From Clostridia bacterium (GTDB taxonomy: Bacteria; Bacillota; Clostridia; Christensenellales; UBA1242), in contig JAFQTP010000002.1 of NCBI GenBank assembly GCA_017409005.1, positions 377,286 to 441,285 of the forward strand: a stretch of 64,000 nt of DNA, in the 5' to 3' direction. Position 1 is the stretch's first letter; every line of letters starts with the position of its first letter. A program made the translations under genes and the position numbers. The notes under the pieces were generated by a model, which saw nothing but the letters and a program-made list of their open reading frames with translations, was not told the DNA's origin and did no database searches. This document shows positions 8,170-57,595 of this stretch, one piece after another.

Positions 8170-8182
8170 ATATTTTAGTTAG

Positions 8183-16224: not shown

Positions 16225-16253
16225 TTGACAATTGTTTATAAACAAAATATAAT
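16225..16253 (+). promoter_or_regulatory. consensus sigma-A promoter of giant gene 1
   Basis: Perfect TTGACA (16225-16230), a 17-nt spacer, then a perfect TATAAT (16248-16253). The predicted leader to the ATG at 16377 is about 117 nt (RBS GGAGA 16366-16370). Confidence 0.7.
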
Positions 16254-16376: not shown

Positions 16377-16442
16377 ATGGTTAAAAAATTAAGCGCAATT
16401 ATTCTTGCTATATTTGGCTCGGTATTATTTTTGTGCGGTTGC
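16377..16442 (+). other. lipoprotein signal peptide / lipobox of giant protein 1
   Basis: A positively charged N-terminus (KK) and a hydrophobic core lead to lipobox L-C-G-C, with Cys22 encoded at 16440-16442. An acidic Gly/Ser/Glu spacer follows (about 16519-16612). Confidence 0.75.
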
Positions 16443-19400
16443 GGCGACCCATATAAAGATTTAAAGTTAACAGCATCAACAAGCAACATTGTGTTGTATT
16501 TAAACGAGGCTGTTGGTTCAGAGGGTAACGAGGCAACTGATGGCGAAAATTCTGGCGGAGAGTCGTCTGAAGGAGAGCAGGGTTCTTTAAGCCCAGGGCA
16601 ATCCGCCACCGATGCAGAAATTTCGGCTGCCTATCCATCTGTAACCTCCTTTGTTCTTAAATTAGACGGAGTTGAAAAAGGTGTTAGCACAAATGTAACA
16701 ATTTCGCAATATGCCTATAATGGTGTTGAAGATATTGTTAAAATTGAACAAATAACATCTAACATCACAGGTAAAGATGGTGGCGACGATGGTGCACGTT
16801 ATCAAGTTACAGCGCTAAGAAGTGGGTCCGGTTTAATTGTTATAACCACTGCCGAGGGTAATAAACGTGTTGAAATTGAAGTTTCGGTTAAAGTTCCGGT
16901 TAAAGGTATAAGTTTTAGTAATACAGCAAAAGCTGTTAAATATTTAAGTTCAATTGACCTATATAAATTTGTAACTTACAACCCAAGCACTACCGATCAA
17001 AAAGACATAACTTTCTATTTAAATGCTCCATCGGGCGAAGGTGTTGCTTCCGACGAGGTTGGGGTTATTGAAACCGATTATGCTAAAATTGAAAATGGCG
17101 TTTTAGTAACTAAAGAATCTCCAGGATACCCTGTAGATAGCATGGGTAACAGATATGTTCAAATTTATGGCGTTTCTAAATTTAACCCAAACATTAAAAC
17201 ACAAGTAATTAATTTACCAGTTATTGAAGTTATTAACCCAGACGACATTGTTTTAACAACAACAGCTGAAACCGAATCTGGCTATGTACAACTTCAAAAA
17301 ACTTCTAACAACTATGAAATTGTGCTTGGACACAACATTCCAGATAATCCATATATTTATTCTCGCGATTTAACTTTAAAACTTAGCGAAGAATATGTTG
17401 TAGACCAACAATATGTTATAACAACAAACTATTCACATTTAATAACCCCAGAATCTGTTTTTGAATTAACAGAATCTGTTTTAGAAGAAAACCGCTATAG
17501 TTATAGTGGCGTAAAAGAAAACTATCCTTACAAAAAATATAATTTCTCACAAATAGCAACTGGTAGTAAAACATTAGAGATTTATGTTGACCGCCGTGGC
17601 TACGAAGGCTTGTTTACAATAACTTTAAAAGTTAAAGTAACTGTTAAAGATTTTGGAACTCAGCTATTTGCAACAAAAGAAGATGGTCAAAGTGCAATTG
17701 CAAATGGTGTTACAATTTACAATGCTTATGGCTCGCAACAAAGTTTGGGTACAAGTGTTGTTTTAAACTTAACCCCAAACCCTAATAACGCATATAAAAT
17801 TCATTTAAATTTAACTGGTGCGCCACAAGTTTCTGGTTTGCCAGGAATTAAAATGTCGTTAGTTAATACAAATGAGGTATATTCAGGTTCGTCAGTTGCA
17901 TCTGGCACTAGAATTTACTTTAAGCATGTATATTCTTATGAAGAAATTACACAAATTCTTGGCGGAACACAACCTCCAACACTTGTAATATCGTACATAT
18001 ATTCACTAGCTCCAGTTGAGGGAACTACTGGTTATGCAACCTATTCAATTGAAGAACGTATTCCTTTAATTGTTGAGGCAGGTGTTGACGATATTTCTGT
18101 TCCAGCAGGAAATCAAGAGATTAAAATTAATGCAGTAACAGGGCAGGCTGTTGGAGATGCCGGCGCTGTTGAAGCATCAAACAATTTAAGTTTTTCAACT
18201 TCAATTTTAGAAGAGTCTGGGACTGAACCTGATGGTGAAACACCAGAAGGCGAAACTCCTGAGGGTGGTGAAGAAGAGGTTGAGGCTAACGAAATTGTGT
18301 TAGTTACAATTGGCGATCAACCTGCCGACCTAGCAAAACTTATTAAATCTGTAACCATTATTAACATAGATGGTGTTCAAACAAACATTAATGCTTTAAC
18401 TACTAACAGTAACACATTCTTTGATGTTGTGTTTAAAGAGGGACCACTATTAGGGAAATATAATCGATTAATAATAGAACCAAAACTTCAAGCAACGCAA
18501 GGCAGATTGGTTCTTGAAATAAAAACAAATAACTACATTACAAAAACAGTGGTTGTAGAGGTGTTTGTTCCAATTGCTTACGACGCAACTAACACATCTG
18601 CTGTAAATGTTGAAATTCATAGCGAAAACACCGTGGGTTCATATATCTACGAGGTTACAAAATCCAAACACCATGTGGTATATGATGGTGCTTTAACCAT
18701 TGTTCCAGACGATGTTTTACCAGAGGAACTTATTGGAACAACAACCGTTTATTCAACTTTAGAAGCGCTTACATTGTCGGTTAATAGTCGTGTTGGTTTA
18801 AATGTATTTAACTATGTGGTTTTAAACAACTCTAAGGGCGAACCTGTTGTTACAAGGGTTAACTATAACTCAAACATTTCGGTTTCGCAAAGCCGTGAAT
18901 ACTTTACAATTGAATACGAAAGTATTAATGGTGTTTCGGTTCCATTTATTGTAACCAAAAAATTAAAAACAGCAACGCCAATAACAATGGCAATTAGTGT
19001 TACTGGTTACGATGCAAATGGTGCACAAGTTTCGTTAATAAAAAACATTAACATAACCATTATCGAACCAATTACAAGCATTTCATTAACTCCAGTATCT
19101 TCTACTTTATACACCGAAAATTCACTTGGTGCATTAAGGTCTGAACAAAGTAGATTAAAATATAGCTTAAACGTATATCCTGTTAACGCAACAATAAATG
19201 CAGGAACAATAGTTGAATATAGGTATCGTAACGATGTTTTATATACTTTAAAAGCTGATTCCGGAAATTCGTATAATATTAGGGTTGAACACATTTTATC
19301 GTATGATTCAACCACAGGCGAATTTGTTGCATGTATTCAAGAAGAACGCATAAGCAACATTTTATTAGCATTTACTGCCGATTCGGGAATTAGTATTGAT

Positions 19401-22400
19401 AGTTCACAAGTTATTAAATCAATTTTTGAAAATAACGTTATTGTAACTGTTTATGCTGCACTACAACAATATGACAAACCAGAAATAACAACAAGCGCAA
19501 CAATTACAATTAGAAATGCGGAAAAAGTTGAAAAAATTATTCCTAGTAGCGATATTAACGGAATTTATTTCGACTTACGTAAAATTACAGAAAGTTATGA
19601 AGGTCAAACAATAACATTCAATGTTTTACCTTCTACTGCAAATAATAAAACTTTAATTGTTAACATTGCAGACGAAAGCGTTGTAAAAATTGTTTCAGGT
19701 GTAGACCAAAACAATAGAATTATTGGAAACAAAATTGTTATTAAACCAAATAACACAGCTGGCAGAACCAGCATTCGCATCACGCCTGAAGACAGCTACT
19801 ATAAAGATGGCAACACAGGAGCAATCATGCCAGGTCCATCAATTTATATTCCTATTCGTGTTGCTGATGGTACAAAAGCATATCCATTTGAAATCAAAAA
19901 TCCTGACGAGTTTATGGAAATTGGCGAAGATATTGCCGATGGAAATAACGAATATTACTACGTTTTAGTACAAACATTCTCAATGGCGGCTTTCGATTTT
20001 ACTCCATTCGATGCGTTCTTTGGTGGATTAAGTGGAAACTTTACTTACGAAGTTGATGGTATTAATTATACTCAACAAAATAGTTTGTATGGCTTAAACT
20101 TTAATATTGAAGTAAACCCAACTAACCCAGATTTAGAATATCATTATGGCTTATTTAAAACTCTTGCACAAACCGCAGAAATTGAAGGTGTTAATCTTGT
20201 AGATGTTAATTATCAGTTGTCGGTTCAAAATTCCGATTTTGAAAATGAAATTAACATTGGTGGTATTGCCGGTGTTAGCTACGGAACAATTAACGATTGC
20301 TCTGTAAGTGGAAAAATTAGTGTAAATTCTAATGTTAAAAATTTAAACATTGGTGGCGTAGCCGGAAAAGTTTTAGCTTTTGTTGAAATTTATCCTGCAG
20401 AAGAAATGTTTGCTGTAGCTGGCACAATTTCAGGAAAACAAAGCGCAACAAACTTCTCTGCTGGCTCAGAAACAGCAAATGTTCAAATAACATTTATTGG
20501 TTCAAGCGAAGTAACCGATGCAAACGTAAATATTGGTGGTGTGTCGGGTAGTGTAGAATCGTTTACTTATACCGATAGTATTGGTGAAGTTACACTAGTA
20601 GGTTCCGACTTTACAGGCTTTGGTGATTTATTACCAATTCCAGTTCATAAAGGTGTTGGTGTTTATCAAACAATTTCTCAACCAGTAATTCAAAACTTGG
20701 TTGTTGCTTCTAGTATTGTTAGTGTTAACGAAAGTGCACAACCATATAAAGCAAACATTGGTGGTGCGTTCGGATATTCAAACTCAACTTTAATGGAAAA
20801 TATTACAGTTGCAACCATTTTACGTGGTCATTCAAACGTTGGTGGTATTATTGGTAAAGCCGAACACAGCATTATTATGAACTCTGCTGTTGAATTTGCA
20901 AACCAAGGACAAACCGGCGCAAACACCATTGCAATTAGCGGATATAACAATGTTGGTGGTTTGGTTGGCTATGCCGAAAACGTTAATATTTTATATAGCT
21001 ATGTTCGTGCATACTTTAACAACAAAGCAATTGATAACTCGACATATTTTGGCAACATCGCATTGCTAGAAAGCACCGAAGCAACCAAAAATATTGGTGG
21101 TTTAATTGGTTATGCCGAGGCAACAACTATTAGCGACGAATTAAAAAATCTTGGACACACTGGTTTTACTTTAGATACGCTTATTGATGCAGAATATGAT
21201 ATTTCTGATTACGTAAATAATCAATCATCAAACGGAATTTTCCATTCTTACTTTAATGCTGATATTAACGCAAGTTATCAACCACTTTCTGGCATTGTAA
21301 ATGTTGGTGGTTTAATTGGCGCAACAACCGAAGCAGGAAAAGCATTAACTGGTAACATTGATTCAGTTTTAATCGAGGATTCATATGTGTACGGAAATAT
21401 TAAACTTCCAGAAACAAAAACATTCTCGTTTACTAACTATAAAACTTTCCCTGCAGATAATAGTTTTGTAATTGGAACATATACTTCATATGCTGCAGGA
21501 AATATTGAAAGTGTAAATCCATCTTATTACGACTATTCTATTGGCGATATTTCAACAGGTTCAAGCAATCTAATTGAAATTATAACACAGGGAATTGGCG
21601 AAACTCACGTTGTGGGTGAAGAGCCAGACACAACAAGTTATCAGGTTCAAAACATTACATTAAAAGTTCATTATGTTGCAAAACTTATTGGTAACCAAAC
21701 TCTATCTGTGGTAGAAGGTTCTGCCACCGAAACAAAAAATGAAACAATAGAAAGCATTCAAACTATTGAACAAACAAAACAAATTACTATAAATTCATTA
21801 CTTCCACAAGATGTAAAAGCTCATAGGGTTTATTACTTAATTAATGGTAATGGCGCAATTATTAGTTACATCGTTAATTCAAGTTACGCAATGTTTGACA
21901 TTGTTAGTTCTGAAACAATTGTTCATGACCCAACAAGGCTTCGCTACGATATAAACAACACGACAACTTATTCATATATGTCGTTGTCTGAAACACAAAA
22001 ATTTATTGATGCTGGCTTTAGCATTGTTGTTGCCGACATAACAAATGTTGAAAATTATAAATCTTCTGTGTGGTTAAAATGTGCAGAAATTAATGGTGGA
22101 AACCCAATTCTATTTGCAAAAACACACAATAATGGTCAAATATTATTTAAAGTTTTACCAACACAAATAACCATTAATATTGTTGATAATGCAGCTTTAG
22201 ACTTTAGTAATATAAGCTACATTAAAGATGGCGAAAACCTTGTGTTGTTCTATAACGAGCAAATTAGCGGAAGAGCATATAAATATGTAAACTACTACAA
22301 ACTTGTTAGTTCCGACGAACCAGCAGGAGCGGCTGAACCAATTACAGCATTAAACGTAAATTTAGATATTGTTGATTTGTATACAAAATATGGTATTAAC

Positions 22401-34247: not shown

Positions 34248-34250
34248 TCA

Positions 34251-34279
34251 AAAAAACAACGCATTTTGCGTTGTTTTTT
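34251..34279 (+). terminator. rho-independent terminator after giant gene 1
   Basis: ACAACGC (34256-34262) pairs with GCGTTGT (34268-34274) across loop ATTTT. It is flanked by an A-run upstream and T6 downstream, and starts 4 nt after the stop. Confidence 0.8.
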
Positions 34280-34494
34280 GTGCTTGTAAAAGCGTAAATT
34301 TGGTATATTGTTAGAACATAATAATTATAAATTTCAAAATTAATTAGCTGTGTTTTTGCCTTATTTAGAACAAGTAAAAATTGTAAATAATTACATAAAA
34401 TTTTACTTCAATTTTAGGTTTGAAACCGCAATAAAAACTTGGTAATTTTTATGTGAAATAATGCCACTATTTTGGGCTATGTTTATATATTTAA

Positions 34495-34523
34495 TTGACA
34501 TCTACTTTAATTAACTTTATACT
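34495..34523 (+). promoter_or_regulatory. near-consensus sigma-A promoter of giant gene 2
   Basis: Perfect TTGACA (34495-34500), a 17-nt spacer, then TATACT (34518-34523). It lies about 93 nt upstream of the ATG at 34616. Confidence 0.65.
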
Positions 34524-34615
34524 AGTGTTAAGCCGTAATATTATATAATAATATTTATATATATAACGTAATAAAAAATATCAGTTTGTTTAAAACTAAT
34601 TTTAAGGATGAAATT

Positions 34616-34690
34616 ATGGGTTACATACGAAAAAGTTTACTCGCAATATGCTTAATTTTATTTAGCTCTGTAATGTTGTTTTACGGATGC
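34616..34690 (+). other. lipoprotein signal peptide / lipobox of giant protein 2
   Basis: R/K at positions 5-6 and a hydrophobic core lead to L-F-Y-G-C, with Cys25 at 34688-34690. This fits the permissive prokaryotic lipobox rule ([LIVMF..]2-[..Y..]-[AGS]-C) but is less canonical than in giant protein 1. Confidence 0.6.
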
Positions 34691-49600: not shown

Positions 49601-52600
49601 TTACTTGATGCAAACACAGACTTCAAAAATAAATTTGAGGCTTCTGGTGTTTGGACAACGGCTGCAGGTGCATATCCAATGTTAACTTGGATTAACGATA
49701 GTGCCGATGCTATTGATGCAACTAATATGGTTGATTCTGTTAAACTTGCTAACACAGTTGCGGGTTATAATGTAACATCATATCAAACTTCTGGTTCAAA
49801 AGTTAAACCAGCAACAAGTTATAGTAATTCATCTCAAGCATTTATTTTAGAGGCTAATCCTACTGCTGGAACAAGCATGAGTAATAAAACTGTTTATTTC
49901 ACAAAAAGCACAAACGGATTAAAACTTGGCGTGGTTGACGAACGCTCGTTAATTTATGGAATTCATTCAACCACAGCTTCAGATTATATAATTGCAACAA
50001 ATAACGGCTTTGTTGTTGGAAGTTCTATTCTTGCAAAACTTGCAACCACAAACAATGGCGTAATTTATCGTGTAACATTTAATGCTCAAACAGGATTTAA
50101 TACTAGTGCGTTTGCAGTTACCACAAACAATGGTGTAATTGACACTATGGTGGCAGAAGATACATTTAGTTCTGCTGTTGCTGGCTCAAAATTAATTAGC
50201 GTAAATAATGGTGTGGTTTATCGCAGTTTAATTAAAAACAAAAAATTAAGCTTTGCTGGGGCAAGTGATCCGGGTAAAATTAAATCGTCTTATTATTTAA
50301 GCGATGGATCATCGTCTGCACAAACAAATGCTAACTACTACGATCAAATGGGTAGTTTGTATAGTTATAAAATTAATGATACTGCCGATACTTCATATAA
50401 ATTTGATTTAGCTAATTTTGAAACAAACATCTTAGATATTTCAGGTATGGATTTTGCTAACGACTTTATTATCATTAAAGGCAACACAGCAAAATTAAAT
50501 TACGGCGCTCCAATTTTCCGTTATGAATTACATTCCGAAGATACAACAAATGGCGGATTTGATTTCGATGGCGAAATTATTAGTTCTAACTATTGGATTC
50601 ATTCAACAGGAAGAAATTGGAATTACATTAAAAATAATTATGTTGATACAATTATAAAAATTGATACTCCAGAAGAGTTGGCTGAAGTAGCACAAGCTGT
50701 TACATTAGGCAACCAAACCGGATTAGTAACAGAAGAAGTTGAAATTAGTGTAACTGATGATGCTGCTTTAATATCTGACGAAAGCACTTCAGAAGACGGC
50801 GCTGATTGTATTACAATAACAACAACAGAGTATAACTTTGGTGTTGCAGTAACAAAAGTGCGCGAGTTCCTAGATTTTGAAGGTCAAACAATTCAATTAG
50901 AAGATGATATTGATTTAAGCGGTAGGTTATGGACACCAATTGGATTTGGTTTTGATAACTACGAAGTTGGTGTAGGCAGTTCATATGCAACAACATTAAA
51001 CGATTCAAGCCATAATATGTTTAAAGGTTCGTTTGATGGATGTGGCTATGTTATAACTGGTGTAACAAGCGTTGAATCAAACAAGAATGTTGGTTTATTT
51101 GGCACTGTTTATGCTAATAGTGTTGCAAAATATACTTTAGCAAACATTGTTGTTAGAGATAGTAACTTTATTAGCGTATCAAGTAACGGAGGTTTCTCGG
51201 TTGCAGGTGCAATTGCTGGTAGGGTTGTGCTTGATGTAACCGATGTTGCAGGATATGCTTCAAGCAATCCATTAAAAGTTCTAACTAAAGTTGGTACAGA
51301 ACACGCAAATGTGTTTGCAACAAATCGTGCAAGTGGTTTAATTGGTGATTTGTTAAATGTTACTGGTTCAATAGGAAGCACTAATGCAAACATTTATTTA
51401 GCTTCTTCATTTGAATATGCTTATGTAAATTCTAATGTTGCAACATCATATAATTCTGGTGTTTCTAGTGCATTTATACATTTTGGTAATAACTCTAAAT
51501 ATGACCAACATAACAGTATTGTTAATTCAGATATGAGTTATATTAAACAAATGTATATATCTGGTAAGTTAGGCGATTATAGGCTTGACGATAGCAATAA
51601 ATATGCATTTGTTTCGCAAGAAACCGATTTAACATCATTCACAACTAACAGTGCTTCAATTGATTCGGTGTATGGATTGTTTACAAACATTACACCAGTT
51701 GTTACGGTTAATAATTTGTATGCAATAGCGTTATTTGATGATACGTTTATGAATTCGCAAGCTATGAACATAACATCTGACTTCCTACAAACCGAGGCTT
51801 TAGGAAACTTTGATTGGGGAAATGTATGGACAAGGCAAGATGGTGTTAACAATAACTATCCAACTTTAATTAGTAAAGTTAAATATTGGGCAGAAATTGT
51901 TACTGCTTCCGATGCTCCATCATTAAGTGAAACAACTTATACAATTTCAACAAACAAACAACTTGCATGGCTAGCTCATCAAGTTAACGTTGAAGACAAA
52001 AACTTTAGTGGTTACACCTTTAAATTAAATGCCGATATCGACTTAAATAATTATATTTGGTCGCCAATTGGTTATGGTGATCAAACTGTGGCTGATAGTG
52101 TATATCGTCAATTTAGAGGTACATTTGATTTTAATGGTAAAACTATTAAAAACTTGGTAACTGCAGGTGTTTATATTAAAACTTCAGATTTACCTGAAGA
52201 GTTAAAAGGAAACTATACTACTGAAGAATTGTCAAGTTTAGTTGTTTGTGTTGACGAAAATAAAGCAGGATTGTTTGGTTACACATATGGTGCAACTTTA
52301 ACAAGTTCTGCAGGGTCTGGTAAAATTGGAACAGAATCTTTAGATTATTCGTTTATTGTAAGTAAAGGAAATGCTGGTGCATTAGTTGCATATGCACAAG
52401 ATACAAATATTTCAAATATTACCAATTATGCATCAGTCTCTGCAACATATAATTCTTATGTTAATGGTGTTGCTGGTTTAATTGGTAAAACCGCAGCAAG
52501 CACAAATGTAACTTATACAAATTTAGTTAACCATGCACAGGTTAGATATAATTCGCTAACCACTGATAAGAGTGCTAATGCGGCAGGTGTTGCTGGCTAT

Positions 52601-55600
52601 ATTGTTACAACACTATCTGGAAGTGTGGCAATCAACAATAGTAGAAACACTGGCGAAATATATGCTGCAAATGGTGCATATGTTGGCGGAATTGTTGGTG
52701 GTGCGTCTACAGGGTTAACCATTAATGGTTTAGGAAATTATAGCGCTAACACAACCGGAACAAGCACCATTAAAGATAACACATCTAACAATCCTGATAA
52801 TAGTGGAGAAATTGTTGGCTATCGATTTGTTGGTGGAATTGTTGGTGGATATAGTATTTCTGGCGCTACTACTAGAAATGTTATTGAAAATGTTACAAAC
52901 ACCGGAACAATTATTGCAGTATCTTCAGGTGCGGGTGGAATTTTAGGAAGAGGAAATGCTTATGTTTATGAAGCAGTTAATGCTGCCGATGTAAAAGGAA
53001 CCCAAAATGTTGGCGGAATTATTGGAGAAAGCATTAATTCTCCAAAAATTGCAAACCTACTAAATAAAGGTTCAGTATATTCATATAATTCTACTTTAGA
53101 AGACTACGAACACCAAGAAACTGGAAGTTCATATGTTGGTTTATTAATTGGTAAAATTGATAATAATGCACAAAACAATATTTATTCTGTAATTGATGTT
53201 TCTACCGAACAAAACACAGTATACTTATTTGGTAATAGCACAACAACATATCCATCGCATGCAATTATGTCAGCACATGGCATAAAGAGCTCTAATAACT
53301 TAAATGAAAATTCCATTTATAATTATGGTGGAGCATACGTAAAGGTTCAAGAAGTGTTTACCGATAGTTTAGTTTGGGATAATGTAGTTGAATATGCTAA
53401 CGGCTCAGTTGATAAAAATCAAATTACATTAAACTACAAGCAAACTCCAGCAGGTACTGCACCAACAAAATCTGGAACAACATATGAAGTTGAAAGTTTA
53501 GAAAACTTAAAATATATGGGTGGACTAAATCGTAAACGATATGGTATTAGTAGTGTTTCAGGTGATATGTCAATAATAAATAGTTTTGATATTGTTAATT
53601 TGCAACCACTTGGTGGCGGAGTATATCCTTGGAAATGTGATGTTGTTGGTGGGAATAAAACTTTAACCATTAAATCAATAAATACGGCATACGATAATTG
53701 CTCATTATTTGGCGATGTTTTAGGAAATGTAAGAGCAGATAAATCTGTTTCAGACTATGTTGAGATTAAAAATTTAAAAATTAAGTACAATGCTTCAACA
53801 TCAATTTCATTCGAAACGGGAATGTTGGCGGATATTGCATCTGGACTAAAAGCCGTAGGTATAGAGATTTCTGGATCGGGACTAACAACATCTGCAAATT
53901 TTGGTTCCATTGCAAGCAATGGAACAAGTTTGAAACTTGAAAACTGCTCAAATAGTTTAAATATAAGTTCTTCAGGAAGTCGTACTTCAGGATTAATTCC
54001 AGTTGTTGGCGCTGACGAATCTAATTCGGAAATTAAAACAAGCAGTAATACTGGGAATATTACTTACACTGGTTCCTCACATACAGCAGTCGTTGGTGGT
54101 TTAGTTGCTGAATCTAAAAACACAACCTTTATTGGTTGTGCAAATGGGGCAAGTAAATTTGCAAGAGTTAAGTATGAAGGCAATATTCAAGAATCTTTAA
54201 TTGAACGTGTATCTACAATCAAAGGCCCTATTGTGGGTGGAATTGTTGGAAGTTCTACAAATGATTCAATTGGTGTTTCTGGCGATGCTTATGGTGAATT
54301 TAACTATGGTAATGTAAAATCAGAAACATCGGCTGCAAACAATTCTAATGCGTCAGCAGGCGGAATTGTTGGTTGTGCAATAAATTCAAAAGTTTATGAT
54401 GCAACAAACTCTGGTCTTATTGAGGCGGAAAATTACGCTGGCGGAATTGCCGGTAAAATGAAGAAAGAAACTATAGATAATGCAGAAAATACCATATTAG
54501 GTGAAGTTATTTCATCAAGTATTGCAGGCGGAATAATAGGATTGTCGGAATCTGTTAAAATTTCAAATGCTAAACATTGCGGCTTTGTTGCTTCCAGAAC
54601 ATTTAATACATTAGCATGTATTGGTGGTATTGCAGGTAAAATAACTGGAGCTAGCAGTTCTGTTAAAATTGCGGGCACAGTAGAGGGTTATGTTGGTGTT
54701 TATCAAAAAACAGCACCATTAACATATACCGATGCAACATCGGCTGCAACATATACATTTAATGCAAACTATTATTATACCGATTATAATGTTGACGATC
54801 CTGAAACTGGCTCAGACAAAAAATATAAAAATTTAGACGAGCAAAATGGTGCAGTTAAATTTGAGTGGGATGCTGTTATTTGGACCGAATTAGGGGCTGC
54901 GCAAGATGCCGATAGTAAAGGTGTTGCTAGTGATGCTTACCGAAATGCAGTGTATAACATAGGTTATATTGCAGGCTCAAGTAACACGGAGGATAAATCT
55001 ATTGTTAATGTATCTGTTACAAAACCTGAGGATAAATTGGTTTTACATGATTATTATGTTTCTGCCGAATACAAAGATGACGGCGAAATTATGTGGTGGT
55101 ATAATAACTGGATTCGATTAACTGGTAAAGACAGGTATGGCGAGCCTCAAGAGTTTGGCAAATGTCAACTTAACCCTGATGCAAATAATGAAAGAGTTTC
55201 TACTGCGGCGACAGATGGTGAAAAGGGATATGTAACAGATTTGTGGGGTCATACTAGCGGATGTTCACACGAAATAAACAACGGAGCACCAACAAACTCT
55301 GTGGCAGCGAACACTCCAACTCCAGTTTATTACTTCGAGTTCCAAGACGTTACATCTAGTGGAACATCATTTGGCACACATTACACAGGAGCAAAAACCA
55401 AGTATTATGCAGGGCAACAAATTGCATTGCCTACTGCATCTGAAGAAGGTTATGAACTTACTCATTGGAGTAAATCAACTAATGCTAGTGATACTTTGGC
55501 AAAAGTTGAAAACGGTACAACCGTAAACAGTACAAACTTTACCTTTGAGGATAAGGATGGTAAACAAACTGAAACACTATATGCACACTGGAGTAAACAA

Positions 55601-57262
55601 AGAATTTCGGTGTCACTATACGGTAAAGACGGCAAGTATGAGGGTGAAACAAAAGATGTGTACTCAATTGGTGGGTTTACCATTGAATATGGTTCATCAA
55701 TTCCTCATTTGGAAAACATGCAAAATCATCCTGAGATCGATAGTTCATTATTGATTAGAGATGGCTATAGAGTTACTAGTTGGCATCGTGTTCCTTACAC
55801 TGTTTGGAATGATTGGATAGATACTGCAAATGATGGATCGTTAACTGATAAATCTAACGCTAAAAAGAGTTTGGAAAATTATATTTCCGATTGGAAAGAT
55901 GCTGAGAAAGTTGAGGAAGGTGCCGATTACGTTGGAACTGGGTACGAAAAAACAAAAGTGTTAAGTTCCGATACATTTACAAACCCAATAACAATTTATG
56001 CGTTCTGGTTGCGCACAATTACTATTTCATTTAATGGTAACTACACAGGTGCACCGACTTATGAGTCTGTTGAAGTTGCAAAAGGAAACACTATTGCGTT
56101 GGCAGAAGTTCCTACCCCAACAAGAACTGGTTATGAGTTTGTAGGTTGGTATAAAAATGCTGCTGGTTCTGGCTCGGCTGTAAACTTTGAAACCGAAACA
56201 TTCGGATCCGATACAACATTATATGCTAAATGGCAAGGTGTTGAGGTTCATGTAAGCTATATTAATAATGTTACTGGTAACACAATTGATTCAACTATTG
56301 TTCGTAATGGTGAACTATTAATTAACGTTCCAAGTGAAGAAGTGTTAAATGGCTTAGTAGCTGGTTATACATTTAAAGAATGGAAAGTTGGTTCAAATGT
56401 AATTAATGTTAATACATATAGGTTAGATGTGGGTTCTAATACAACATTAAGTGTTGTGGCTCACTTCACCAAGAATGCTTACACCGTTAAGTTTATTGAA
56501 AACTTTAAAGGTTCAACAACTGCATTACAAACCAAATCAGTTGAACATGGCGGAAAAGTAACAGCATTTGCTAACCCAACAAGAACAGGTTACGAATTTA
56601 AAGGTTGGTATTATTCTGACGACACAGCATATAGCTTCGACGACGTAATTACGGCAAGCACAAATGTTTATGCTAAGTGGGAAGCTATTGATGTTGAAAT
56701 CTACTTCTACGAAAATGTTTCTACTGGCTCATGGATTGCGTATGGCTCTGAAGTGGTTGGTAAATACGACGATCCAATTAGCCCATTAAGTCCAGTTCCT
56801 GAGTTCCCAGGTTATAGATTTGATGGATACTTCTTGGAAGAAGCGTGCACAACTGAATTAGATTTAGAGTCCGGCTCAGTTACATTTGCAGAAAATGAAC
56901 AAATTATTTACTTAAAATATGTAAAACAAGTAACAATTACATTTATGATTGAGAAAACAAATGCTGCTGGCGATAGTGCTATTTATAGCATAGCAATCGA
57001 CTCTGGAACTAGGGTTTCAGACGAGGTTAACAGTGCAATTGTTAATAGTTCAGATTATTTAGATATCTACGATAGTACTAGTGGTAACTATATTACAACT
57101 AGATATCCTGATTTGTTTACAGCAAACAGTATGTCTGAAACTACTGCGTTAGTTTGGGTTGAATACAATGTTGGTACAGGACAAGCAACAGATACTGTAA
57201 TCGACCTAGAATCTACAATAATTAATTCTGATATTACATTAATGTTGAAATTCTTAACATAA
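34616..57262 (+). CDS. giant surface lipoprotein 2 (~7,548 aa): Ig-like arrays, eight GLUG-type modules, C-terminal Listeria-Bacteroides-type repeats
   Basis: Uninterrupted ORF. The ORF track opens at TTG 34586, but the ATG at 34616 follows RBS AAGGA (34604-34608) and begins a lipoprotein signal peptide, MGYIRKSLLAICLILFSSVMLFYGC. By eye there are roughly 45 G-G-[LIV]-[IVA]-G rungs plus Big_2-like segments. The tail has GY-x-F-x-GWY...LYAKW repeats. There is no LPXTG or HExxH. Confidence 0.9.
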   Translation: MGYIRKSLLAICLILFSSVMLFYGCDKNAYKNMSLSIEGSTDMEVVLNDDPSLNLFTVTALVSKMPKGYDGAVSFSVPVNDFISLKETSNKVEDGRSRAVFEAKQQGGPVAITVKTLEGNLTTQVNVKVVKPVTSISFNSQIIPVIKGEQTDISKYLTFNAGESSTNQTGVKLELISESNSDKLIQVVTDGHFLTVPSELDLSEFQIRARSTVNPEIVSSTLATVKVITVIPTSQITLMHNNNTPDISDDDLAVEKVNSTDYGIVLATNTGNLFTKTLYFNFANNVNENNNYSVGIKGLTESGAILDENNEENRIVEAVKVPNKLNWFNINARGNGKTKIEFIIERSDFPGQFTQTITLNIDVQAFPTEISVSNISTNEKLDYIQLYANYNESTTFGTPFRVVVSNETGAMTNQKVIVNVSSFAENNIQLYDSNKNLVQFGSELISNGQYYLKHNFTEAPQEEIKLNLESVTYSQVFTDVLVLIETQPIELTTSRDTVNIDITKGVVETKLEVLGLPSGFNYLNLSYELLKDDVSDASKLVSISKTASQIAVAPKTTNIGIGECKVKVIAPNGSYQIYTIVLYESLNTAQTSVTIAGVTIDAQDVLDAESATEINVKNGLNIQVYFNINGKEYSSLAGTGLSYKVTSSNNQVVQNKQVSYQLQTQNMAGASHVVIEITGFNDSGQKNKVVYFEAYITVSVPLANLFTNESETVLYDTNSLAVSQQTTYGTYTINLSSSPVNATFTFDDIEWICEYNGTELLADTDISQDKETVIYTFRTINFDTIRLTTTKSNFKQAVVTCEISGSSTQMLTFNIVARVQQEFTNENGYVISAPKTASVRFLVYRAVRVSDFVFENVASRGTASNPVFEITYDERDLDYDGSKYNNTANCIKTINFTVYPANALNKDLGVTVNNSAISVGINNVNKTITVQLLYKPTSTEPITITVYAKDDFDGGQIGKHKIIKIRVLDGRSVESAFEVKNQADLEKVSSSLSAHYVLAGDIALSSNWTPIGYSQLGTQQFNGYFSGKYEVKDENDTVVQTSYYSITGLTINNNSYEYYGLFAYLGSNSQVSDLTINGVSITANITHNKNVYAGALAGYAEGTITNVSVNDQSGVQSYTGVYYNNNEKGSTDFGIYITANTNTSEHANYFVGGLVGFVNNAALYDASTTVASSLALFNNVKTNYSGSSLLNTQIANAKVVAQLNVHVKTNNISFVGGVVGFNNRAVISANNSTALSFGSDSANVITAINASLTPEQTSFNEYSAFGGVAGFNNGIIDGITAKASIFGVYEYSGETYNLRNVGGIVGYNTGSITNNTAFPLIHAYENIGGVVGKTVSAVVSLDGTVGETDYSFVNGKMGVGDGKFTMGHSIEFNSNFKVVITEFKTESLTYDELVEVLTTQYSSKDTAEDYANNAYNRAIPNTYTVTKVSKLNMFSDVADKVVYAYRYGSYAINSSSDYDGLTTNQIALSLGNYGTNTISGNSVQFLELNDGVKLFNTALVGMNNVGGLIGEYVGVYAVNEDVAPFDANSSVSGAVAVSHVNYNPIAYNSVYNYTQKTVVQTNAVVANSFYGNILLSNAYVSEVKPENRNYAGGLVGKLTNGAIYANQVFASLQGNLAALGGLVGKTDGITSISNSSFVGTIINRDTDATAEVAAITGGLVGDALSATTTFAYYGKANDDETLLDTNILGSLTTLKYSYGTESVGYVNLGTTYNNIAYSYFRAQTPSGYVASVAEETTNYINQKSVGYVGAGRRELNLTYAYADGSIKTFTVNETDLNYNPTLTDVLKVNTTTVKTSASETEVFENSFNFDGATIDETKVNTFIAKTQAYVVTELAIDDNGDGLSDEHTSNGTGDIYKLTSAEFIDAYLKNTVWYVNYQLNDGLPVLLTPNKLVVTESGYSINLLSNFPPTDIILELKQNMVDTFITSLGANSASVIYFYGLADSNYQNSSSLNFGTTDEDKIKNSTTELNAQLAKLNTYSIAEVLNLTTIPSFVNANSFKLTSSNPSVLSVGLDEQNNIKFVAKGAGTVVITISSVYNTSLTKSIFVNVANATNSLKLGYFASGEQKYVQNNQILTITKSTDDMQITLPLSSNFASSYDFNGIIHPEIKKTFALKQNINSGVRYYLTALSTIESVTYSSIYHFTNDIESLIDSIPVTINNSKFEYEYVNSIEDEGVTTNYYTVYIDVPYGNTANVVGLVETVENLNFVAVPYVVTNITSSTKTKQLLASIGEYNDVENAIELSYVHNNEEKVEKVLGLTIPTQSSIVLNKTRYGVETYSYADYKQEYLKHIDNLVTKFSLKVAKATWNITKSLDEISFDVKTIPTFSIEIETDKDTEELYVVYYENLGSESKERVVPISTIIDGDSSFGGKVQISNITMLVNNHNISEVNGKNVITYNFSLLVSDELKTEIQDVFTTSLRFFVAKQGANITYDGEYVNNAISSITTANLLVELPVTLLPQSITEITLKHYPNSESTVTTDDNGNKITNVNLNEIAYDNLIPGNAGILKAYISPYYSSFDELRIISSGSGANSVLFEQMLAHTTKTAAGILYTGNYTTLITQGNQVDGGITLQKISYIQNAGEESELQGYDGNIYIRTLVNSYITEADNFTLTLTAYKNGVVVKTASITLEVQTPPSLNLSINGDKFAPIARGTEIGFDAKLNDLAGMVDFSQSYMFRYNSNGMEVRVGSINSDFTIKTSGGNYSVSVNNNIASDRYIKIIGVVTKQINGEIIEHTDSITLHVTDFVIEEITVENATAGNYVGLFNQPYALIVRINKATYNPENAETVAEQIQALELEFSKCYEENSVLTTWKSVNTSTTTVVENRYGSLQKGYNTAKTFIIGTRISADLNNTAVYTLQNTRFGSGDKLAAVVQYVYTDNGIKALMTSEDRANYETNAYCYEKTYEFGFGFYRIRDEERPDPIETAEQFKNMEDGVDYILVNDIVLEDWEPFRDDLAINSLDGNGYVITIKNFKLDAFESVESLINTKNIGIFGKINAGTTIKNLIIEVPAAQKANSIELATYAGTAVDLYVDAKAYKTVNFGILAGTNSGLVTNVQIVNDAGALREERELAIAYSDPSNPLYANYFDGVTFDKNAFIIANWNKFHANEVYKTVSATDKTPLLDGNDELIIESLAGSENRQLSVVRIDTTATTDVQAHYMAGLVGQNLDGGTDALGTITNSSIENITINGVGNVAGFVAVNNGKISTSYFKGGNVINHTTEQVAELATSGFVITNSGTNAAIQYSYVQGRIGEKVKFANPKTGLAYTNASNIDKTGLNDEAKSAFAGYTYYQSSTEPGFQASVATLRALNAMIDTRTNASAFIYENAAIISNSYANIMVNSTMQTSGFVFSNTEEGTISSCYTLSSIRTKNQSASPFTGRTSNYEGYNNANPEGFNDCHYLKLGCDENATALEISLKEDFIDSKEPATALGSSQFAEYNTFQGYAFNTDFEKSSADKLTRSVWFIPNDQSKTLYKEYFKNSYYINARPELVAANMRTVSIRVWIGSDESEENSYNYVSNELVLGASIKNPILIKSAEDFNRYLNYETTNEDVDRNFAVRFISDIAFNKTDLTAQTYNMEYYGDLDGNGMTINQLRLVSDTDFENPNTGETITHLGLFGKIKTKDPDAEVKERGVVRNLNINVSEVRGSKVTYVGALAGSIENADVFNINISGDEVIQGKNLVGGLAGIIKGDSEIVNITSSLSAKAAYFKDTNKFLGVYPNATLLPKEFGTFNLYYSELQGDEVSNVENVSYAGGIAGVFDVKEREEDEQLSPLSLFNAKARKLIVSGNITLIGEIVGGVFGLNGIESTASDLSFIVGEANNPELKGSRVVGGLIGENRGEIERSYVAHDTTLQEKIDAEYGNAVTSGTNPTVNNSTLNYNGLYAGNAHYTGGVVGFNNGGRITNVYSKMNVINMNTMYAGGIVGLSIGGQYNFIYTTGTVSGFKSAGGFAGLQTSNPYNAVEDTSGAETQLVYSLHNRYTSIYIEPNKHNGAIVAKGASKYVGIVAANIWRSQDLVTSRVEQNAEDLSIGTLIGMAADRTMTEALDGGTYPNINNIVEVSDLSARMMNETVFFTQPFIVSNQHDSAYSGFDMLMPEVGSFNTKYLFNTRTRGLSKDYRFSNSVNPETGKNSTSAADADKVSSTYDANTDPLVTNMTRPMGLSGYLAQPKMDKDGYYLVDGVKNTSLASPDKTVDRTYYHYSRLQNIGSARTLKEIITSLDIISSEAYVCGDLTDNAGSTVLDEVNTTSYHAYDETYDTIETSGIFETWNTNRWTGVRKESAADLATVFPFLEAKPEKTLIQVYNVTHLKLMSTYVNAEFQLMNDIDLLETVEGDDTTGGNWEPVGTKAIPFKGILHSNPAVSDIYTIYNLSVTNAPENYAGLVAYANEAEFKNFNLSKVILDVEGSNDVPLFMGALVGYAVSGTIINNVDITTAKGSGAVLTTETAGTMGGLVGYSEIGTVTNCNIESVTINANGFGDLSKLETERDKTLAFGGAIGYITSAVVDLPMVSNVSIESGDVFIRAQDGTSLNMLADSYFGGDASRSFDVGGVIGRSNNSDSDYGRVTGISSALTITTKLARNANTAITDVNVGGLIGKAQNTMLTEEGWMGEDGLSSYKQRNFVNGTTGKTPSNGIVVELDDYKDNLYVGGAVGSIYGATKITLGVEYQTDDLSQVVVGKSRALPINLTINGGDPTTYVGGVAGLAQNVASNNLYANSTIAITDKTTAECVLSAGGLIGEINNGQYVKNAQSLGSVSYTSEVKGTNGVNLGGAFGNVIMADLEGTPGVIEKVIANSSVIGNTTSDGSNYRTMALGGFAGKMFSGQISQSVSSGLVKLLNANKNNQNYVGGFVGKLDINSEVQGNSSFPHTISITNSYATNDVQATSMFESSNASYAGLFVGNIAYGYKKNVKNQITLLNNYTIGKFVYSADGTFYDSFYNEKTNKGGFLGGFEYYVSGVNSTNIQRAKNLVFRNNFYNSDFVPYTNGYMEGVVTQQMLLDANTDFKNKFEASGVWTTAAGAYPMLTWINDSADAIDATNMVDSVKLANTVAGYNVTSYQTSGSKVKPATSYSNSSQAFILEANPTAGTSMSNKTVYFTKSTNGLKLGVVDERSLIYGIHSTTASDYIIATNNGFVVGSSILAKLATTNNGVIYRVTFNAQTGFNTSAFAVTTNNGVIDTMVAEDTFSSAVAGSKLISVNNGVVYRSLIKNKKLSFAGASDPGKIKSSYYLSDGSSSAQTNANYYDQMGSLYSYKINDTADTSYKFDLANFETNILDISGMDFANDFIIIKGNTAKLNYGAPIFRYELHSEDTTNGGFDFDGEIISSNYWIHSTGRNWNYIKNNYVDTIIKIDTPEELAEVAQAVTLGNQTGLVTEEVEISVTDDAALISDESTSEDGADCITITTTEYNFGVAVTKVREFLDFEGQTIQLEDDIDLSGRLWTPIGFGFDNYEVGVGSSYATTLNDSSHNMFKGSFDGCGYVITGVTSVESNKNVGLFGTVYANSVAKYTLANIVVRDSNFISVSSNGGFSVAGAIAGRVVLDVTDVAGYASSNPLKVLTKVGTEHANVFATNRASGLIGDLLNVTGSIGSTNANIYLASSFEYAYVNSNVATSYNSGVSSAFIHFGNNSKYDQHNSIVNSDMSYIKQMYISGKLGDYRLDDSNKYAFVSQETDLTSFTTNSASIDSVYGLFTNITPVVTVNNLYAIALFDDTFMNSQAMNITSDFLQTEALGNFDWGNVWTRQDGVNNNYPTLISKVKYWAEIVTASDAPSLSETTYTISTNKQLAWLAHQVNVEDKNFSGYTFKLNADIDLNNYIWSPIGYGDQTVADSVYRQFRGTFDFNGKTIKNLVTAGVYIKTSDLPEELKGNYTTEELSSLVVCVDENKAGLFGYTYGATLTSSAGSGKIGTESLDYSFIVSKGNAGALVAYAQDTNISNITNYASVSATYNSYVNGVAGLIGKTAASTNVTYTNLVNHAQVRYNSLTTDKSANAAGVAGYIVTTLSGSVAINNSRNTGEIYAANGAYVGGIVGGASTGLTINGLGNYSANTTGTSTIKDNTSNNPDNSGEIVGYRFVGGIVGGYSISGATTRNVIENVTNTGTIIAVSSGAGGILGRGNAYVYEAVNAADVKGTQNVGGIIGESINSPKIANLLNKGSVYSYNSTLEDYEHQETGSSYVGLLIGKIDNNAQNNIYSVIDVSTEQNTVYLFGNSTTTYPSHAIMSAHGIKSSNNLNENSIYNYGGAYVKVQEVFTDSLVWDNVVEYANGSVDKNQITLNYKQTPAGTAPTKSGTTYEVESLENLKYMGGLNRKRYGISSVSGDMSIINSFDIVNLQPLGGGVYPWKCDVVGGNKTLTIKSINTAYDNCSLFGDVLGNVRADKSVSDYVEIKNLKIKYNASTSISFETGMLADIASGLKAVGIEISGSGLTTSANFGSIASNGTSLKLENCSNSLNISSSGSRTSGLIPVVGADESNSEIKTSSNTGNITYTGSSHTAVVGGLVAESKNTTFIGCANGASKFARVKYEGNIQESLIERVSTIKGPIVGGIVGSSTNDSIGVSGDAYGEFNYGNVKSETSAANNSNASAGGIVGCAINSKVYDATNSGLIEAENYAGGIAGKMKKETIDNAENTILGEVISSSIAGGIIGLSESVKISNAKHCGFVASRTFNTLACIGGIAGKITGASSSVKIAGTVEGYVGVYQKTAPLTYTDATSAATYTFNANYYYTDYNVDDPETGSDKKYKNLDEQNGAVKFEWDAVIWTELGAAQDADSKGVASDAYRNAVYNIGYIAGSSNTEDKSIVNVSVTKPEDKLVLHDYYVSAEYKDDGEIMWWYNNWIRLTGKDRYGEPQEFGKCQLNPDANNERVSTAATDGEKGYVTDLWGHTSGCSHEINNGAPTNSVAANTPTPVYYFEFQDVTSSGTSFGTHYTGAKTKYYAGQQIALPTASEEGYELTHWSKSTNASDTLAKVENGTTVNSTNFTFEDKDGKQTETLYAHWSKQRISVSLYGKDGKYEGETKDVYSIGGFTIEYGSSIPHLENMQNHPEIDSSLLIRDGYRVTSWHRVPYTVWNDWIDTANDGSLTDKSNAKKSLENYISDWKDAEKVEEGADYVGTGYEKTKVLSSDTFTNPITIYAFWLRTITISFNGNYTGAPTYESVEVAKGNTIALAEVPTPTRTGYEFVGWYKNAAGSGSAVNFETETFGSDTTLYAKWQGVEVHVSYINNVTGNTIDSTIVRNGELLINVPSEEVLNGLVAGYTFKEWKVGSNVINVNTYRLDVGSNTTLSVVAHFTKNAYTVKFIENFKGSTTALQTKSVEHGGKVTAFANPTRTGYEFKGWYYSDDTAYSFDDVITASTNVYAKWEAIDVEIYFYENVSTGSWIAYGSEVVGKYDDPISPLSPVPEFPGYRFDGYFLEEACTTELDLESGSVTFAENEQIIYLKYVKQVTITFMIEKTNAAGDSAIYSIAIDSGTRVSDEVNSAIVNSSDYLDIYDSTSGNYITTRYPDLFTANSMSETTALVWVEYNVGTGQATDTVIDLESTIINSDITLMLKFLT
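40610..40762 (+). other. clear Big_2-type Ig-like domain in giant protein 2 (example)
   Basis: FKLTSSNPSVLSVGLDEQNNIKFVAKGAGTVVITISSVYNTSLTKSIFVNV. It sits just after GLUG module 1, the same relative position as the Big_2 example in giant protein 1. Confidence 0.6.
55328..57259 (+). repeat. array of ~6-7 Listeria-Bacteroides (Flg_new/InlB-B-type) protein repeats at the C-terminus of giant protein 2
   Basis: The units are about 70-80 aa. The clearest are 56009-56236 (ITISFNGNYTGAP...PTPTRTGYEFVGWYKNAAGSG...TLYAKWQ) and 56471-56683 (YTVKFIENFKGST...NPTRTGYEFKGWYYSDDTAYSF...NVYAKWE). Flanking copies are more diverged (EGYELTHWSK...LYAHWS; DGYRVTSWHR...IYAFW; AGYTFKEWKV; PGYRFDGYFL...IYLKYV). 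They are diverged at the DNA level, so this is not a nucleotide tandem repeat. Confidence 0.7.
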
Positions 57263-57280
57263 TTGTAAAGGTTATAAAAA

Positions 57281-57318
57281 ATGACTTAAAAGATTTATTC
57301 TTTTAGGTCATTTTTTTG
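57281..57318 (+). terminator. rho-independent terminator after giant gene 2
   Basis: ATGACTTAAAAG (57281-57292) pairs with CTTTTAGGTCAT (57300-57311), 12 bp with one G-U pair, across a 7-nt loop. T7 follows. Confidence 0.8.
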
Positions 57319-57455
57319 TTTTTTGCCTTTATTACATATGGTAATAAACTATATATATTATTAATATAATCATAATTTAATGTAAAAAATGGTAAAAGAG
57401 GCTGTGTTATAAAAAAATTTTTACAAAAAATGTTATAAATTTATAATAAACATGG

Positions 57456-57484
57456 TTGACAGGTTTATATATCCGTGTTAAAAT
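57456..57484 (+). promoter_or_regulatory. sigma-A promoter of rpoBC with extended -10
   Basis: Perfect TTGACA (57456-57461), a 17-nt spacer, then TGtTAAAAT (TG at 57476-57477; -10 at 57479-57484). The predicted 5' leader to the rpoB ATG is about 300 nt. Confidence 0.65.
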
Positions 57485-57595
57485 TATGACTGCATAGTAG
57501 TGTTTGAATAATGCGCAAAATTCAAACTCTAGGGGTTAATTTAATGGTTTTACTTAAAAAAAGTAAAGACTAACTTAATATCTTTTTTGCACTCT

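Follow-up and report, generated by a model that had tools for sequence, protein, structure and literature searches.

Classical giant Gram-positive adhesins consist of tens of recognizably repeated domains, and their attachment relies on LPXTG/sortase or on wall-binding modules. Surveys of giant and huge proteins list examples from Clostridia that consist of RCC1, β-propeller or dockerin repeats. The Mobiluncus report describes an adhesin of 7,651 amino acids (aa) made of immunoglobulin (Ig) repeats (PMC10619420), and Apilactobacillus kunkeei encodes Giant1–5, extracellular, Asn-rich proteins of 3,000–8,000 aa whose consecutive, same-strand genes occupy a large share of their locus (PMC12863079). 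The A. kunkeei Giants combine β-solenoid and Ig-like domains and diversify by intragenic recombination; they have Sec/SPI signal peptides, long and mostly α-helical repeat arrays, and DUF5776 and SH3b-like C-terminal wall-binding domains, with the β-solenoid at the N-terminal end, which is the distal one (PMC12863079). Here, we analyze two adjacent giant genes, A and B, in a 64-kb stretch of the genome of a Clostridia bacterium (contig JAFQTP010000002.1; this whole stretch is referred to as the window). The A/B family is not among the survey examples, and no description of it was found in the literature searched.

A and B define a previously undescribed, lineage-restricted family, while giant bacterial surface proteins as such are already known. 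We read their products as N-terminally lipid-anchored acidic fibers, an anciently duplicated pair whose stalk is conserved and whose distal end evolves fast, recombines, and is the likely contact or antigenic surface, and we assign this reading a probability of about 0.55. Its basis is computational and comprises gene integrity, selection, synteny, signal peptides, promoter-like sites, the folds of two segments, and allelic variation.

Integrity and conservation of the A/B locus

Gene A spans positions 16377–34247 of the window, starts with ATG, and encodes 5,956 aa with a computed mass of 643 kDa. Gene B (34616–57262) encodes 7,548 aa with a computed mass of 816 kDa; its frame is open from a TTG codon at 34586 (7,558 aa), and the start was set at ATG 34616 because orthologues keep an N-terminus that reads MGYIRK or similar. 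Both genes, with all their features described below, lie on the plus strand. Together they account for 40.5 kb, or 63% of the window, between the SpoIIID gene upstream of A (PF12116; 15910–16164) and rpoB downstream of B (57794–61492), which is followed by rpoC; these are the coordinates and sizes proposed by an earlier, sequence-only reading of this DNA. The same reading had described both products as rich in Asn, Thr, Ser, Val, and Gly, poor in Cys, and devoid of hydrophobic segments beyond the signal peptide. The computed values agree: Ser, Asn, Thr, Gly, Ile, and Val make up 8–9.6% each and Cys 0.3–0.4%, and the signal peptide is the sole strongly hydrophobic 19-residue window in either protein. 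Ser reaches 9.3%, with no serine-rich-repeat region in A or B, and the isoelectric point (pI) of both is 4.7.

Exact-protein look-up with rpoB and the neighboring acyl carrier protein (ACP) retrieved at least eight independent assemblies of the same species (ENA, Logan, NCBI), with DNA 98.5–100% identical to the window. In these, A is called at 5,957–5,973 aa and B at 7,525–7,548 aa, with no stop codons, and A is intact in at least seven assemblies other than that of the window. Seven strain contigs, compared over codons 1–3,130 of A, are free of stop codons and show a ratio of nonsynonymous to synonymous substitution rates (dN/dS) of 0.08–0.12, compared to 0.09–0.16 for neighboring genes, which places gene A under strong purifying selection; the conserved flanks of B have low dN and low dS. 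Self-comparison by BLAST revealed no internal repeats in A or B at E < 1e-5, so repeat collapse is not an issue. Giant ORFs (open reading frames) are often chimeric when metagenomes are assembled from short reads, several public contigs end within the A/B genes, and one low-coverage contig of 11.6 kb (L012) has an 8-bp deletion (window 16607–16614; about position 4340 of L012) that frameshifts A. Nevertheless, colinear intact ORFs recur in at least eight independent assemblies and in about 18 species, there are no repeats to collapse, and dN/dS is about 0.1; we therefore reject mis-assembled repeats and decaying pseudogenes, the probability of which is negligible, and the genes are intact, as the sequence-only reading had held. 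The L012 frameshift could stem from faulty assembly or represent a null or phase variant that occurs in nature. It falls in the acidic low-complexity tether just after the A signal peptide.

A degenerate-pattern scan with the A/B core over 185,579 species-representative genomes yielded 23 loci from about 18 species-level metagenome-assembled genomes (MAGs), all with giant intact ORFs. The MAGs are labeled as uncultured Clostridia, Christensenellales, or 'Christensenella sp.', have a GC content of 26–38%, and originate, where a source is named, from the gut (Hadza human samples, roe-deer cecum, and a mouse MGBC genome). An A-type gene of 4,606–5,942 aa, the range of the orthologues in eight other species loci, always precedes a B-type gene, which exceeds 6,700 aa and lies within 0.3–2.2 kb of it; full-length B orthologues include P0122 (7,469 aa), P0124 (7,455 aa), and P0127 (7,804 aa). 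The gene order SpoIIT-M23-ACP-SpoIIID-A-B is conserved, and rpoB follows B wherever the sequence extends there. A and B are colinear paralogues with 22–25% identity, and both types are present in all relatives, which implies that the duplication predates the radiation of the clade; judged from these alignments, A/B would be an ancient duplicated pair. The paralogy recognized in the sequence-only reading is confirmed, and about 18 species-level MAGs keep the arrangement spoIIID-[A][B]-rpoB.

To judge how rare the family is, we relied not on a word-indexed database but on HMMER, run exhaustively against 1.84 billion representative proteins. The query was the non-GLUG middle region (A res. 1890–2790 aligned with B), and 30 proteins matched at E ≤ 1e-3. 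Eight of these are full-length giants of 5,875–7,804 aa that carry the match at the same relative position; the rest are mostly shorter and apparently fragments of family members, and the three weakest, multi-stretch ones may be unrelated. By sequence, the middle region appears to be a family-restricted orphan. An A-core query in the word-indexed database of 5.8 billion proteins returned one fragment. Match lists from this database contained nothing above about 2,200 aa, not even near-identical strain copies, and giants such as A and B show up in it as fragments only. Long proteins thus appear to be missing from it, which accounts for the seeming absence of the giants and is no sign of rarity; a negative result from this database understates the family.

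The N-termini point to a common mode of anchoring. A begins with the signal peptide and lipobox MVKKLSAIILAIFGSVLFLCG (16377–16442), in which LFLCG precedes Cys22, followed by a DPYK motif and the acidic low-complexity tether. B begins with MGYIRKSLLAICLILFSSVMLFYG (34616–34690), in which LFYG precedes Cys25 and which is conserved in B-type orthologues. Both have a basic n-region and a hydrophobic h-region. The pattern [LMFV]-x-[GA]-C is kept in 15 ORFs of related loci and in the 11 database representatives whose sequence includes the N-terminus, and the lipoprotein signal peptide noticed in the sequence-only reading is thereby conserved in every N-terminally complete family member examined. 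The lipobox is usually followed by DPYK or DKYK, with DPYK kept in eight A-type ORFs and in the A-type database representatives, whereas its position –2 is often atypical (Phe, Cys, Tyr, or Val). Pfam scans of A, B, and their families, together with motif and hydrophobicity scans of A and B, revealed no other anchor (LPXTG, SLH, CWB2, SH3b, or a C-terminal transmembrane segment). Lipidation of A and B at the lipobox Cys is predicted from these motifs; lgt and lspA are located outside the window.

Each gene also has its own expression signals, as proposed earlier, and these too are conserved in orthologues. The σA-type promoter of A (TTGACA-17-TATAAT, 12/12; 16225–16253) lies downstream of the hairpin terminator that closes spoIIID, and that of B (TTGACA-17-TATACT, 11/12) is located at 34495–34523. 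Promoter-like sites scoring 10–12/12 precede the start codon in nine of nine A-type and eight of eight B-type loci of different species; the spacer measures 17 nt in 16 of these 17 loci and 18 nt in the remaining one, and the distance to the start codon is 104–186 nt overall and 104–152 nt in the nine A-type loci. The ribosome-binding site (RBS) of A reads GGAG and that of B AGGA, and orthologous loci have purine-rich RBS-like sequences as well, GGAG in A-type loci. Intrinsic-terminator-like hairpins with a T-run follow A (34251–34279; 13-bp stem, –14.5 kcal/mol) and B (57276–57316; –19.0 kcal/mol); a consensus scan missed the former because its T-run pairs with an upstream A-run. The conservation of the promoter sites, which match the consensus, argues for independent transcription of A and B from housekeeping-type promoters.

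Predicted architecture of the two proteins

Over more than 90,000 residues of A, B, and both families, Pfam recognized only the 28-aa GLUG motif and, in the B protein of the window, Flg_new/Flg_new_2; relaxing the threshold to E ≤ 5 on the non-GLUG segments added nothing beyond these two. NCBIfam returned nothing but the Listeria-Bacteroides repeat, and PDB sequence and profile searches, run with the whole A family and with 5,000-aa pieces of A and B, returned nothing but an InlB B-repeat, matched by B (2y5p, E = 0.007). Of the Pfam models that the sequence-only reading had named, Flg_new matches in B and GLUG exceeds its cut-off in the N-terminal half of A only, while Big_2 and Beta_helix do not match, and the Ig-like and β-helix folds are seen in predicted structures only. 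Likewise, the building blocks that it listed are partly common to both proteins: GLUG-type β-helix blocks and Ig-like arrays are present, while Listeria-Bacteroides repeats occur in B only. Two further claims stand as made. The whole proteins could not be placed in any characterized family by the Pfam, NCBIfam, PDB, and literature searches, and there is no catalytic signature, with HExxH and LPXTG both absent from the A and B sequences and no catalytic family matched by Pfam, NCBIfam, or PDB sequence/profile searches. These searches, together with a check of the ORFs after A and B, gave no signature of an enzyme, a toxin, or an immunity protein.

About half of each protein consists of GLUG-homologous blocks, delimited by BLAST coverage with generic GLUG proteins. 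In A, these blocks (res. 1126–1742; 2781–3827, with a gap at 3547–3661; 4256–4439; and 4857–5662) comprise 43% of the sequence. In B (res. 930–1719; 2888–4044; 4239–5023; and 5399–6721), they comprise 55%, including a short match (res. 7164–7355) in the Flg_new repeat region. Profile and BLAST homology extends to more than 100 GLUG proteins. Matches to the strict motif GG[LIVMF][IVAL]G are clustered and number 23 in A and 32 in B, compared to fewer than 0.5 expected per protein by chance in our own estimate from amino-acid composition. Pfam scores are near the threshold: in the N-terminal half of A, GLUG (PF07581) reaches 25.7 bits at res. 1292–1315 against a cut-off of 20.5, while other pieces score 17–19 bits, below the cut-off. 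An iterative hidden Markov model (HMM) of the rung did not extend beyond the regular-expression seeds. An N-cap motif, P.PI.T..EF...Y.L.NDI.L....F.G.LDGNG..I.., is found at res. 2867 and 3401 of A and at res. 2960, 3583, and 5473 of B. The modules counted earlier as six in A and eight in B are an approximation, as we find four to six GLUG-homologous blocks in A and five to eight in B, depending on how adjacent helices are split.

The best-conserved part of both proteins is a double β-helix core. AlphaFold2 predicts A res. 2790–3901 (24744–28079) as two tandem right-handed β-helices, each with an LDGNG cap (res. 2867 and 3401), at a predicted local distance difference test score (pLDDT) of 71 and a predicted template-modeling score (pTM) of 0.78. 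Foldseek matches this model to streptococcal and Gemella IgA1 proteases (6xja, 6xjb, and 7uvk) at a probability of 0.99–1.0 and, with far lower confidence, to PL6 and GH55 two-helix enzymes, a serine-rich-repeat protein (SRRP), tailspikes, Fap2, and Ag43; a viral structure library yielded generic β-helix proteins. Invariant columns are mostly Gly, Asn, and aromatic residues at structural positions, in addition to the LDGNG cap. The corresponding core of B (res. 2888–4044; 43277–46747) has its caps at res. 2960 and 3583. A profile of the core retrieved eight close fragments from Clostridia/Christensenellales MAGs in the 5.8-billion-protein database and, beyond these, generic GLUG proteins from many phyla. 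Many of these relatives also carry PF05342 (the M26 protease N-terminal region), filamentous-haemagglutinin, flagellin, SLH, or type IX secretion system (T9SS) sorting domains.

The core is preceded by a predicted tandem array of Ig-like β-sandwiches. In A, this middle region spans res. 1890–2790 (22044–24746), and its AlphaFold2 model is confident for res. ~2230–2655 only (pLDDT 70–90), where it is all-β. Foldseek against the PDB returned 277 matches at E ≤ 1e-3 for multi-Ig and β-sandwich arrays, including titin, the Bacillus anthracis Sap S-layer assembly domain, MG domains of complement and α2-macroglobulin, and nectins. The middle region of B (res. 1900–2875; 40313–43240) is homologous to the A array at 24% identity and belongs to the same orphan family. 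Each protein is thus modeled as a non-repetitive mosaic of β-helix rods and β-sandwich arrays.

The remaining segments complete this predicted layout. The N-terminal region of A (res. 25–1125; 16449–19751) is colinear with res. 89–529 of B and has no homology to the Ig-like middle region in a profile-profile comparison. It leads into β-helix block I (res. 1126–1742; 19752–21602), identified by Pfam GLUG, a GG[LIV]xG cluster, and BLAST coverage by up to 42 generic GLUG proteins. Beyond the core, A has a GLUG motif cluster and β-helix block at res. ~4217–4650 (29025–30326) and one or more distal GLUG-homologous blocks (res. 4857–5662; 30945–33362) covered by up to 97 generic GLUG proteins, with a motif cluster at res. 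5371–5615. In B, GLUG-type β-helix block(s) I (res. 930–1719; 37403–39772) are covered by up to 117 generic GLUG proteins, and further blocks are located at res. 4239–5023 (47330–49684) and, distally, at res. 5399–6721 (50810–54778), with the cap at res. 5473. Three to four Listeria-Bacteroides repeats follow at B res. ~6899–7372 (55310–56731), supported by PF09479 at 73–96 bits against a cut-off of 27, PF18998, TIGR02543, and internal repeat matches; neither A nor the other B-type orthologues scanned contain Flg_new repeats.

Conservation is polarized along both chains. In the A family, identity peaks in the double-helix core (40–55%; res. 2800–3900) and collapses over the C-terminal ~900 residues. 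The last ~950 residues of A (31377–34244), the putative distal end, are poorly conserved and indel-rich between species, with identities of 4–22% and a gap fraction of 0.3–0.85 beyond res. ~5000. B follows the same trend in four full-length relatives and, in addition, contains an allelic cassette at res. ~6270–7165 (53300–56110). Within the species, res. 1–6200 and 7201–7548 of B are at least 96% identical (mostly 98–100%) in every 100-residue window, as opposed to 39–67% in the cassette, where two alleles differ at about 50% identity overall, with dN of 0.37–0.57, dS of 1.0–1.6, and indels. We compared the alleles through loci L005 and L006 (positions 1–9471) and protein P0121. The left boundary of the cassette is graded (53.2–53.7 kb), and the right one is sharp (about 56.11 kb), inside an Flg_new repeat; the exchanged segment contains a GLUG block and Flg_new repeats. 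Both alleles are equally distant (24–29%) from the orthologous regions of other species. The 5.8-billion-protein database, searched for further alleles, contained no fragments over B res. 6100–7548.

Candidate roles and genomic surroundings

In the model that we favor, A and B are surface fibers of a monoderm, sporulation-gene-carrying lineage of gut Clostridia (Christensenellales-like). Each gene would be transcribed alone and constitutively from a strong housekeeping-type (σA) promoter, and each product would be exported by Sec, acquire a lipid at Cys22 (A) or Cys25 (B) of the lipobox, and through its N-terminus stay fixed to the cytoplasmic membrane, on the outer face. From there, the polypeptide would extend through and beyond the cell wall as a long, largely rigid, acidic fiber in which GLUG β-helix blocks alternate with Ig-like arrays. 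The membrane-proximal and central stalk would be conserved, above all the double β-helix core, and the distal C-terminal part would diverge fast; in B, this part would include a module of ~900 residues that strains swap by recombination, together with the Listeria-Bacteroides repeats. The distal end would most likely be the ligand-contacting or antigenic one, and the pair would most likely serve to attach the cell to glycan-rich targets, or to bring it into contact with them, examples being host mucus or epithelium, plant or food particles, and other microbes. Expression level, lipidation, fiber geometry, and binding function are the parts of this model that we infer.

Several observations weigh against it. 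The N-terminal ~1,100 residues of A have no Pfam or PDB match, and their fold is unassigned, as in several spacers. Structure models cover ~2,000 of the 13,500 residues, and the second model is confident for ~425 residues. The right-handed β-helix is also the catalytic scaffold of polysaccharide lyases and hydrolases, with PL6, GH55, and GH87 among the fold matches. A codon-usage proxy for expression is intermediate and uninformative, and A is frameshifted in the L012 contig. Finally, both genes are fixed at a housekeeping locus in every relative and have strong promoters, a pattern that a structural role in the envelope would explain no less well than a niche-specific adhesin.

This last point leads to the main rival, a surface coat or S-layer substitute, in which A and B would be the main structural proteins of the outer envelope and, as a dense brush or lattice, would shield the cell from phage, bile, or immune factors, with no specific ligand; the variable cassette would then reflect escape from phage or antibodies. 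We consider it unlikely but worth serious attention. Apart from the fixed locus and the strong, conserved σA-type promoters, purifying selection along the stalk and the acidic pI, typical of many S-layer proteins, are in its favor, there is no SLH-type S-layer gene within the window, and the Ig-like array resembles the Sap assembly domain, among many β-sandwich arrays. However, that resemblance is a generic multi-Ig similarity, and no SLH or CWB2 domains emerged from Pfam scans of A, B, and their families. Known S-layer proteins measure ~40–200 kDa and self-assemble by defined domains, whereas a fiber of more than 600 kDa would be costly as a lattice unit, nothing in A or B indicates lattice contacts, and their codon-usage score is below that of a top-abundance protein. 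A bolder proposal, to which we give little credence, makes A and B the defining envelope organelle of the lineage: larger than any lipoprotein described to date, they would build a layer of paired or heteromeric fibers, hundreds of nanometers long, that replaces the S-layer and provides obligatory attachment to a partner (host mucosa or microbe), with the B cassette setting partner or strain specificity and permitting escape from phage and antibodies.

Surface-displayed glycan processing, with some β-helix blocks acting as polysaccharide lyases, hydrolases, or epimerases and the Ig-like arrays as spacers, is improbable. The best Foldseek E-values for the core are those of PL6 alginate lyases and GH55 glucanases, both two-β-helix enzymes, further matches include GH87, pectate lyases, the AlgE epimerase, and phage tailspike depolymerases, and the gut is a glycan-rich habitat. 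Yet these enzyme matches have a TM-score of 0.10–0.23 and a probability of 0.16–0.57, which amounts to generic fold similarity, while the matches at 0.99–1.0 are to the non-catalytic β-helix region of IgA1 proteases; no Pfam or NCBIfam lyase or hydrolase family was found in the >90,000 family residues, and the invariant core columns are mainly structural. A part in sporulation, as exosporium, spore appendage, or forespore-membrane tethers, is suggested by the spoIIID, SpoIIT-like, and M23 (SpoIIQ-like) genes, whose adjacency is kept in all relatives. We regard it as very improbable, given that the near-consensus promoters are of σA type and not σE- or σK-like, that a terminator separates A and B from spoIIID, that rpoBC forms the other flank, and that no search returned similarity to exosporium proteins (BclA-type collagen repeats, Ena pili). 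Contact-dependent antagonism, with the distal module of B as an exchangeable effector aimed at neighboring cells, is suggested by a conserved body joined to a recombining, polymorphic distal module, reminiscent of CdiA, Rhs, and MafB, and filamentous-haemagglutinin-type proteins are indeed among the generic GLUG relatives. We reject this reading as highly implausible: the variable module is internal, with the last ~380 residues 97–100% identical between alleles, and consists of a GLUG β-helix and Flg_new repeats instead of a toxin domain. Neither a toxin family nor Rhs/YD, LXG, or two-partner-secretion (TPS) domains were found, and no small ORF after A or B is plausible as an immunity gene.

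The surroundings of the pair are themselves conserved. Between the M23 peptidase gene and spoIIID lies a stand-alone ACP (PP-binding) gene at 15538–15777, which is 58–91% identical across related MAGs and the best-conserved small gene of the syntenic block. Genes further upstream encode Mfd, an MprF-like lysylphosphatidylglycerol (LPG)-synthase membrane protein, a polysaccharide deacetylase, a SpoIIT-like protein, and the M23 peptidase, and two ORFs of this sporulation/envelope block (8263–9927, 554 aa; 13135–14277, 380 aa) have no Pfam match and are kept in related loci. Downstream of B, rpoB is preceded by a 530-nt non-coding leader (57263–57793) instead of the usual rplJ-rplL, with a promoter-like site of its own at 57456–57484; an Rfam scan of the whole window, leader included, gave no match. 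In strain contigs, small ORFs, including a HicB-like antitoxin, lie between rpoC and rpsL (L005 17816–19297; L006 17484–19344), and one strain has an extra 91-aa ORF there, downstream of rpoC and outside the gene set of the window.

Comparison with known surface proteins

For a gut bacterium with a small genome, the 40.5 kb devoted to A and B probably amount to a few percent of it, and both genes stay intact across an uncultured lineage of human, mouse, and ruminant guts. Genes this costly, retained under purifying selection, therefore probably determine how the cells meet their surroundings. They also expose an annotation blind spot, as Pfam, NCBIfam, and the PDB offer no match for more than 90% of the 13,500 residues. 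For strain typing, and for tests of host-, phage-, or antibody-driven diversification, the allelic cassette of B offers a marker.

The closest relatives in sequence and fold are GLUG surface proteins and the β-helix of M26 IgA1 proteases (6xja, 6xjb, 7uvk; PF07581, PF05342). About half of each A/B protein is homologous to this type, and the LDGNG-type N-cap and GGxxG rungs are shared. Unlike these relatives, A and B have no M26 metalloprotease domain or HExxH and carry a lipobox in place of LPXTG, in addition to being 4–6 times larger. With HExxH absent and no Pfam match to Peptidase_M26, assignment as M26 proteases is rejected. Further differences are that A and B alternate several β-helix blocks with orphan Ig-like arrays and that most of their GLUG scores in Pfam do not exceed the cut-off. 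Diderm β-helical adhesins, such as Fap2 of Fusobacterium (9qe7), the Chlamydia Pmps with their GGA[ILV]/FxxN rungs, Ag43, and filamentous haemagglutinins, are similarly long right-handed rods with GGxx-type rungs, which serve in contact with hosts or cells; Fap2 and Ag43 are weak fold matches of the A core, and filamentous-haemagglutinin-type proteins are sequence relatives of the GLUG blocks. These adhesins, however, are exported as autotransporters or by two-partner secretion and have their anchor in an outer membrane, whereas A and B lack autotransporter and TPS domains, belong to a Firmicute host, and have a predicted N-terminal lipid anchor.

With classical giant Gram-positive adhesins (Ebh/Embp, the Mobiluncus protein, and SRRPs such as that of L. 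reuteri, 5nxk), A and B share a megadalton-class or very long, fibrous build of Ig-like and/or β-solenoid domains, and an SRRP is among the fold matches. Unlike them, A and B have no self-similarity at E < 1e-5 and no LPXTG; an LPXTG (sortase) adhesin is rejected, as neither an LP.TG motif nor a C-terminal hydrophobic window is present. Among the literature searched, the Giant1–5 set of A. kunkeei (PMC12863079) comes closest as a biological analogue, with no sequence homology to A/B; common features are consecutive same-strand giant genes that fill much of their locus, Asn-rich extracellular products with β-solenoid and Ig-like domains, and diversification by recombination within genes. In contrast to those Giants, A and B have a predicted lipid anchor at the N-terminus, no detectable repeats, no DUF5776 or SH3 match, and their variable end at the C-terminus. 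Most giant adhesins are repeat-built and wall-anchored, and an N-terminal lipid anchor combined with a β-helix/Ig mosaic is an unusual design, whose non-repetitive nature suggests that each domain has its own role. What is new relative to known giant surface proteins is this combination: A and B are predicted to be lipid-anchored, and they are non-repetitive, paired, and syntenic.

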